Origin: a virus
Taxonomy: Duplodnaviria; Heunggongvirae; Uroviricota; Caudoviricetes
Strand: one strand, 5' to 3'
Length of the DNA stretch: 8,933 bases
Virus record (IMG/VR): IMGVR_UViG_2703718803_000022
Shown: piece by piece, positions 3,872 through 4,586 of the stretch
How the letters are laid out: every line of letters starts with the position of its first letter
Numbering within the stretch: position 1 is the first letter of the stretch
Made by a program: the position numbers and the translations under genes
Notes under the pieces: model-generated
What the model was told of the DNA's origin: nothing
Databases searched by the model: none
What the model saw: only the letters and a program-made list of their open reading frames with translations

Positions 3872-4069
3872 ATGGCAACCAACAATCGTAAAGCCAAGAT
3901 GCTAATTTCCCGTGTATACAGACTTTGCTACCCCAGCCAGTGGTTGAGAGTTAGCAATCGCCGTGTGGTGTTGTTCTCATTTTCTGGAATTGCCAGAGAG
4001 GGAGTCAAAGATAAGCGCAGCGCGGCGCAAAACCGCTGGAAAAAACATTTGCGCACTAAAGGAGAGTGA
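3872..4069 (+). CDS. Hypothetical small basic protein (65 aa); coding status uncertain
   Basis: ATG 3872 with AAGGA about 9 nt upstream (alternative in-frame ATG at 3863 in ATGA overlap with the upstream stop). Exactly fills the gap before the next gene. Composition rich in R/S/W/C is atypical, so this may instead be an untranslated spacer. Confidence 0.35.
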   Translation: MATNNRKAKMLISRVYRLCYPSQWLRVSNRRVVLFSFSGIAREGVKDKRSAAQNRWKKHLRTKGE

Positions 4070-4070
4070 T

Positions 4071-4586
4071 ATGGCGTTAACACACCGCGAACTCTGTCAG
4101 ATTGCGTACAAGTTCCTTAAGCGCAACGGGTTCAAGGTTTGTTTTCATGACCGCTTTATAGCTGTAACCAGTACCGGAGAACAGCCAGATGCTATGGGGT
4201 TCAGAAATTCAGCATCATGCCTGATAGAGGCGAAGTGTTCTCGTGCTGACTTGTTGGCAGATAGAAATAAGCGTTTCCGTAAAAATCCCTCACTTGGCAT
4301 GGGCGACTGGCGATTCTTTATTAGTGAGCCGGGAATTATTTCAGTTGAGGATTTACCTCCCGGCTGGGGATTACTTCACGTTGTTAACGGAAGAGTACGG
4401 AAAGTACATGGGTGGCCCAAGGGTAATTGCTGTTGGGGTAATCCTGACGATAAGCCATTTACTGGAAATAAGCAGGTTGAATGCGATTACATGTTATCTG
4501 CATTAAGGCGCATGGAGTTGAGAGGGCACCTTAATGAAATATATGACGGTGTAATTGTTAATAAGAAAGAAGGAAACGCGGCATGA
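4071..4586 (+). CDS. PD-(D/E)XK nuclease-like protein (restriction-endonuclease fold, possibly VRR-NUC-like)
   Basis: 171 aa. Strong RBS AAAGGAGAG 6 nt upstream. N-terminal helix, then hydrophobic strands, then ...GEQPD(40)AMGF...ASCLIE(53)AK(55): a canonical PD-x13-ExK arrangement. Family assignment is by motif only. Confidence 0.6.
   Translation: MALTHRELCQIAYKFLKRNGFKVCFHDRFIAVTSTGEQPDAMGFRNSASCLIEAKCSRADLLADRNKRFRKNPSLGMGDWRFFISEPGIISVEDLPPGWGLLHVVNGRVRKVHGWPKGNCCWGNPDDKPFTGNKQVECDYMLSALRRMELRGHLNEIYDGVIVNKKEGNAA

Follow-up and report, generated by a model that had tools for sequence, protein, structure and literature searches.

The DNA analysed here is a window of 8,933 nt from a Caudoviricetes virus record (IMG/VR IMGVR_UViG_2703718803_000022), and the element under study is the gene at positions 4071–4586 on its plus strand. 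The 171-residue product of this gene is a PD-(D/E)XK restriction-endonuclease-fold protein whose catalytic motif is intact and conserved. Profile and structure comparisons indicate that its family is a distant sister of the repair nuclease MmcB, lying outside PF06319 as that family is currently drawn. The kind of enzyme (PD-(D/E)XK, MmcB-like) is already known; what is new is an uncurated and widespread branch of it. The gene gives DNA matches in about one-fifth of complete Escherichia coli genomes and occurs in Shiga toxin (Stx) phages; a tblastn search with the protein finds it in 643 deposited phage genomes. Even so, almost every annotation calls it 'hypothetical', some wrongly make it a pseudogene or a tail protein, and no curated family model covers it.

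The nuclease fold and its kinship with MmcB

The reading frame at 4071–4586 is open and encodes a protein of 19.4 kDa with a pI of 9.15. Its ATG lies 1 nt past the upstream stop codon, behind an AGGAG site, and its own stop overlaps the next ATG (ATGA, 4583–4586). An earlier prediction, made from the letters of this stretch, had placed PD at residues 39–40 and ExK at residues 53–55 of this 171-residue open reading frame (ORF), and P39-D40 and E53-A54-K55 are present exactly there, with the motif codons spanning 4188–4235 (D40 at 4188–4190, E53 at 4227–4229, K55 at 4233–4235). Because so short a pattern could be coincidental, it is the conservation across relatives that lifts it beyond chance. 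D40, E53, and K55 are invariant across 29 close relatives. When the alignment is widened to 50 relatives with as little as 34% identity, D40 still never varies, and E53 and K55 keep at least 90% conservation, a level also attained by E37, P39, S57, D64, K67, and R70; further conserved positions are H5, D60, G78, R81, W99-G100, and R146-R147.

An AlphaFold2 model built on the 29-sequence alignment (mean pLDDT 85.5, pTM 0.80) consists of a helix (residues 5–18), strands 23–26, 41–45, and 48–54, a helix, and a strand, which is the α-β-β-β-α-β core of the PD-(D/E)XK superfamily. The original prediction had likewise put a helix and strands ahead of the motif. D40 stands just before strand 41–45, and E53 and K55 lie at the end of strand 48–54, so that the catalytic aspartate sits at the start of the second core strand and the conserved (D/E)-x-K at the end of the third, the placement typical of the superfamily. 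The modelled protein is a single small domain and carries no additional DNA-recognition module.

Three comparisons connect this family with MmcB. First, a Foldseek search with the AlphaFold2 model returned 3dnx as its sole significant match (E 1.2e-5), extending over the whole domain; 3dnx is the solved structure of PF06319 (DUF1052, now 'MmcB-like'), a PD-(D/E)XK superfamily member (PMC3424549). Second, the profile of the 50 relatives (alignment A2) recovers the 3dnx sequence at E 9.1e-5 with hmmsearch. Third, hhalign aligned the nuclease family with a set of 24 proteins annotated as PF06319 or 'MmcB family DNA repair protein' at a probability of 98.2% (E 4.9e-14, 31% identity over 95 columns); the alignment pairs D40, E53, and K55 with the D, E, and K of MmcB, and the motif E-C-K-S-S-R-x-D-F-x-x-D-x-K is common to both. 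In addition, matches in BFVD include phage proteins titled 'MmcB-like DNA repair protein' (Foldseek E 1e-7 to 2e-3). The nuclease-fold reading is thereby borne out, and MmcB-like proves the closest of the families that the original prediction had listed as candidates.

Curated models do not reach the family. Pfam and NCBIfam gave no match for the 171-residue protein or for the 65-residue basic ORF upstream of it, a single-sequence search of the PDB with the 171-residue protein returned noise only, and in PHROGs the nuclease matches phrog_9263 and phrog_631, both of unassigned function, together with a weak match to a 'DNA repair protein' family. As far as curated models go, the earlier statement that the protein cannot be assigned to a characterised family therefore still holds. 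We place it as a distant sister of MmcB, and not as a putative member of PF06319, because the window protein has no match to PF06319 and merely 13 of the 50 relatives match it weakly (best E 2.9e-4). Weak matches to Hjc (PF01870) are commoner, with 30 of the 50 relatives, and no match to an Hjc model or structure of the kind that would signify membership was found.

The MmcB-like family (PF06319, formerly DUF1052, COG5321) is represented structurally by 3dnx, which is SPO1766 of Ruegeria pomeroyi, and its named member is MmcB of Caulobacter crescentus. The Caulobacter protein is an SOS-regulated PD-(D/E)XK endonuclease that is needed for resistance to mitomycin C and cisplatin and is a proposed partner of translesion polymerases at interstrand crosslinks (PMC9578287). 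The nuclease of the window differs from this family in several ways: it is just 21–23% identical to 3dnx; its family has conserved segments of its own, K-K-x-F-R...G-M-G-D-W-R-F and a C-terminal S-A-L-R-R helix; members of the family are mostly phage-borne and come from Gammaproteobacteria, Bacteroidota, and others, in contrast to the mainly alphaproteobacterial PF06319 (PMC3424549); and its gene sits in a phage early operon, whereas Caulobacter MmcB is under SOS control (PMC9578287). Archaeal Hjc (PF01870), UPF0102/YraN, and AHJR-like proteins share with it a minimal PD-(D/E)XK core of similar size. Acidovorax phage ACP17, Dickeya phage JA13, and marine jumbo phages, among others, encode proteins bearing the label 'MmcB-like DNA repair protein'; these have the same fold, but are only 14–22% identical to the nuclease, whose own family is labelled 'hypothetical' almost everywhere instead. 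In the literature, phage MmcB proteins appear as passing annotations (PMC9123017), and two papers on the exo-xis region do not mention such a nuclease (PMC8614690, PMC10789677).

The nuclease also occurs in databases under other starts. An in-frame GTG at 3963 yields a 207-residue ORF (3963–4586) that overlaps the small basic ORF, and public gene calls include N-terminally extended or chimaeric versions of 185–296 residues, some of them fusions with Ea22-like or downstream-module sequence. Of the longer database proteins, P0001, P0003, P0006, and P0009 were inspected, and each is either called from a start further upstream or chimaeric with another gene.

Distribution and genomic neighbourhoods

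An exhaustive hidden Markov model search recovered 3356 representatives at 50% identity with E <= 1e-3, and 2447 with E <= 1e-10. The phages carrying the gene include Stx phages, P7, Klebsiella prophage-type phages, many Vibrio phages, a Tenacibaculum jumbo phage, and the ~157-kb Vi1-like phages (Ackermannviridae) of Salmonella, Dickeya, Serratia, and Klebsiella. Among 5426 complete E. coli genomes, 1032 give a DNA match, and some of these copies are incomplete or not intact. A scan of one genome per species, run with a closer and less diverse alignment, extended the range beyond Enterobacterales to Alteromonadales, Oceanospirillales, Xanthomonadales, Bacteroidota, and several lineages of metagenome-assembled genomes. 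The nuclease-bearing segment of the window is itself 100% identical to many Stx1a and Stx2a phages.

The P7 copy, upf89.0, encodes a protein 98.8% identical to that of the window and keeps the order Ea22-like gene, nuclease, downstream module. Unlike the window, P7 is a P1-type plasmid prophage, and its nuclease gene belongs to the hea operon, with an annotated C1 operator upstream that, according to the record's prediction, regulates the operon. The RefSeq name of upf89.0 (locus L093, 3001–3516), 'minor tail protein', is unsupported; the record itself states 'unknown protein function'.

In E. coli O157:H7 RIMD 0509939 (locus L092), the gene has suffered a 2-bp deletion that aligns at window positions 4226–4227, the boundary of the I52 and E53 codons. 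The resulting frameshift leaves an annotated N-terminal fragment of 58 residues (RefSeq) and an unannotated remainder. The corresponding cluster of 111-residue C-terminal fragments has 645 member sequences, against 1363 for the cluster of the intact 171-residue protein, and the O157 frameshift is probably one inherited event. The 58-residue reference fragment traces to this lineage, where the deletion is real. The situation is different in E. coli E2865 (L001): there, PGAP annotates an identical, intact nuclease gene as a 'frameshifted' pseudogene covering its first 179 nt only (window 4071–4249), and splits the open 303-residue DUF551 ORF downstream into two 'partial' pseudogenes. Both flags look like annotation artefacts of mosaic genes; we judge the nuclease flag so because its ORF is full length compared with relatives from many genera.

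To characterise the neighbourhoods, ORFs within 3.5 kb of the gene were clustered by BLAST at 84 and then 140 loci; neither set yielded a conserved partner gene. The two commonest neighbour clusters are present at 44 and 35 of the 140 loci, and neither extends beyond enterobacterial relatives; distant lineages have practically no neighbours in common. The cluster of the DUF551 ORF is the commonest downstream neighbour (23/140). Immediate neighbours are codirectional with the nuclease in 223 of 276 cases. The settings are diverse: early-left near an integrase (31/140 loci); nin regions, with Phage_rep_O or DnaB-type genes on one side and NinB, NinG, and Q on the other (the cluster identities were checked against Pfam); one Providencia prophage locus with the order Dam, Lar-like gene, nuclease, RusA; and runs of small early genes in phage contigs of ~100 kb.

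No plus-strand promoter-like site was found in window positions 3000–5600. The lack of a fixed partner, the codirectional neighbours, the tight coupling of start and stop codons, the missing promoter-like site, and the P7 operator together point to a stand-alone gene that, judging from this context, would be expressed with early lytic genes. Two-gene systems, whether toxin-antitoxin-like, restriction-modification, or a nuclease with a small DNA-binding protein, were dropped because the neighbour clustering gave no partner. The original prediction had also suggested that the nuclease works with the upstream Sak4/SSB module. This association was not seen elsewhere: neither Sak4 nor SSB was recognised among the recurrent clusters of the 140 loci, and in the O157 prophage a gene of the lambda-Exo family lies upstream of the nuclease instead.

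Methyltransferases were looked for in the same surroundings. None was found among the scanned ORFs of the window; at 9 and 7 of the 140 loci, respectively, a member of one of two methyltransferase clusters lies within 3.5 kb of the nuclease. A C5-cytosine or D12 N6-adenine methyltransferase stands directly upstream in four unrelated loci (L074, L119, L121, and L141; also L004, L097, and L099), an adjacency that may be coincidence in methylase-rich phage early regions.

Proposed function and competing readings

By analogy with MmcB, and with something short of even confidence, we favour the reading that the protein is a metal-dependent endonuclease acting on damaged or branched DNA in early phage DNA metabolism. 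Translation would start behind the gene's own AGGAG site on the early-left transcript, so that the nuclease would appear after infection or induction and not in the lysogen. D40 and E53 would hold metal ions and, with K55, cleave a phosphodiester bond in nucleic acid, and the conserved basic residues R58, K67, R70, R81, R146, and R147 may bind the substrate. If MmcB is a valid guide, cutting damaged or branched structures would let replicating or recombining phage DNA be completed, a role potentially useful to a prophage that is induced by DNA damage. The kinship with MmcB thus offers a concrete enzymology, namely metal-dependent cleavage of damaged or branched DNA. Should a repair role be true, it would bear on how efficiently Stx prophages develop after DNA-damaging inducing treatments; should it be false, the protein would be one more phage nuclease of unknown use.

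Several points weigh against this reading. Only remote homology underlies the suggested repair role; no curated model, not even PF06319, picks up the window protein at a threshold as loose as E <= 1; and 3dnx is a structural-genomics entry of unknown function. The family is also widespread in phages that propagate independently of SOS induction, such as Ackermannviridae and the ~100-kb phage contigs, and repair at induction can therefore not be the whole story. Finally, the frameshift in the catalytic motif of a widespread E. coli lineage means that a resident prophage can lose the gene, which shows only that it is dispensable there.

A bolder extension, which we consider unlikely though worth stating, would make the protein the founding example of a phage-wide class of stand-alone MmcB-type nucleases that either process crosslinks and fork lesions or disarm nucleic-acid-based host defences. 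If such a class exists, it would explain why the gene is retained by Stx phages, P7, Ackermannviridae, Vibrio phages, and the prophages of multiple phyla.

A role in host takeover or anti-defence alone, in which an early protein breaks down host nucleic acid, or else a defence system's nucleic-acid component or signal, seems to us distinctly unlikely. It would suit the position among early accessory genes adjoining the anti-RecBCD gene abc2, the many virulent phages that carry the gene, and a sporadic, moron-like distribution; against it, no similarity to any known anti-defence protein was found, the nearest relatives are chromosomal repair proteins, and the neighbourhoods point to no particular defence system. 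We regard as quite improbable that the protein is an Hjc-type dimeric PD-(D/E)XK resolvase of Holliday junctions or branches that debranches phage DNA before packaging. The shared minimal core and the weak but frequent Hjc matches among relatives bring this role to mind; we rank it lower because the resemblance to Hjc is only weak and because RusA and NinG are found alongside the gene.

The original prediction had further raised a defence or superinfection-exclusion effector that cuts incoming foreign DNA, and for this the nuclease fold and the prophage accessory region can be cited. We now hold it very improbable: PADLOC-DB 2.0 contains no family that matches the nuclease or the small ORF at E <= 0.1, the gene has no promoter-like site of its own and is tightly coupled within a codirectional early operon, a C1 operator is predicted for the operon of the P7 copy, the nuclease gene comes without a sensor or partner gene, and it is frequent in virulent phages, the ~157-kb Vi1-like phages among them. 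Scarcely credible, last, is an enzyme whose own cleavage explains its mobility, either as a free-standing homing endonuclease, also an earlier proposal, or as the nuclease partner in a restriction-modification pair: patchy presence between variable genes and methyltransferase genes within 3.5 kb at no more than 16 of 140 loci (directly upstream in four) speak for it, but the single small domain lacks an added DNA-recognition module, flanking genes vary widely where a presence/absence polymorphism at one site would be expected, most loci, that of the window included, have no methyltransferase, and the joints around the gene are a 22-nt linker and a shared 5' module that fit ordinary homologous mosaic exchange.

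Mosaic joints, the small basic ORF, and the prophage setting

The two joints are visible as repeated sequences, all on the plus strand. A 143-nt direct repeat, with copies 96% identical at 3408–3550 and 4583–4725, brackets the small ORF and the nuclease, and corresponds to the duplicated 5' modules that had been claimed earlier. Its first copy makes up the first ~47 codons of a 152-residue ORF (3408–3866), and its second is the 5' module of the 303-residue DUF551-containing ORF (4583–5494); the repeat is a 5' module common to two different genes. The second element is a 22-nt gene-boundary linker, CGCACTAAAGGAGAGTGATATG, at 4052–4073, which comprises the last codons of the upstream gene ('...KGE') and its stop, the AGGAG site, and the ATG of the nuclease. 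A second copy, 86% identical, at 3195–3216 joins the end of the Ea22-like gene in the same manner to the start of a 63-residue gene.

Most E. coli matches start at window position 4052 or 4058, which marks the upstream limit of the shared unit. In P7, the equivalent of window 3060–3216 is fused straight to that of 4052–4719, and in the O157:H7 prophage the Ea22-like gene likewise adjoins the nuclease. These alignments identify the three small genes at 3214–4069, not the nuclease, as the inserted piece, a block interposed between the two linker copies; the comparison is with P7 and the O157 prophage and, at the level of annotation, with most E. coli prophages. Lambdoid mosaic exchange is expected to leave short conserved joints, and the linker and the 143-nt repeat fit this expectation.

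The small basic ORF (3872–4069, plus strand, phrog_1380) encodes 65 residues with a pI of 11.7 and 17 K+R against 3 D+E. It is a real coding gene, because its substitutions relative to three phage homologues concentrate at third codon positions (12/17, 18/23, and 8/14). Another in-frame ATG lies at 3863, overlapping the stop of the upstream gene, but the homologues favour the start at 3872. The core of the small protein is conserved in 52 protein clusters, from Escherichia, Salmonella, and Citrobacter only; its AlphaFold2 model is unreliable (pLDDT 59) and too poor for a structure search.

The small ORF and the nuclease had been described as one inserted accessory cassette, a description that does not survive comparison. 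Of the 1032 matching E. coli genomes, just 78 have the two side by side. Phages D6 (orf101), Sasha (gp78), and PJ16 (088) carry the small ORF ahead of unrelated genes, and the nuclease directly follows the Ea22-like gene in P7 and, by RefSeq annotation, in most listed E. coli prophages. Because they travel separately, the small ORF is a genuine but independent gene, and the pair is not a cassette. A fusion or programmed frameshift linking the two, a possibility raised by phrog_9263, which joins a small-ORF-like segment to the nuclease, was set aside on the same ground and in view of the extended or chimaeric nature of the longer database proteins inspected.

The window covers the early-left arm of a lambdoid prophage of the Stx type, integrated at wrbA, and its accessory region is of the exo-xis type, in agreement with the early-left accessory region proposed originally. 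Window positions 220–8933 are 99.9% identical to the E. coli E2865 chromosome; positions 1–219 do not align to the E2865 locus that matches the rest. Upstream of the nuclease, on the plus strand, lie genes for a Sak4-like ATPase (423–1103), an SSB-like protein (1100–1687), and the anti-RecBCD protein Abc2 (1711–2007), followed by several small genes and the Ead/Ea22-like gene (2805–3212). The interposed block then begins with the 63-residue gene (3214–3405, phrog_1222) and continues with the 152-residue and small basic ORFs. Beyond the DUF551 gene come further small genes, an excisionase-family gene, the integrase gene (7024–8358), and a truncated host wrbA. An Rfam scan of the window gave no RNA family.

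The wrbA reading frame (8355–8933) runs on from phage DNA, and its new ATG at 8355 overlaps the integrase stop at 8355–8358; compared with native WrbA, the N-terminus appears to have been replaced. The PGAP annotation of E2865 still calls a wrbA product, of 192 residues. The ORF at 5678–6049, a DUF1627 protein by the E2865 annotation, has weak Csa3/CasR-type helix-turn-helix matches in its N-terminus and contains a perfect 9-nt tandem repeat present four times (CAGTGCAGC, 5871–5906) that encodes VQP repeats. A single 9-nt gap distinguishes E2865 from the window and may correspond to one VQP repeat unit.
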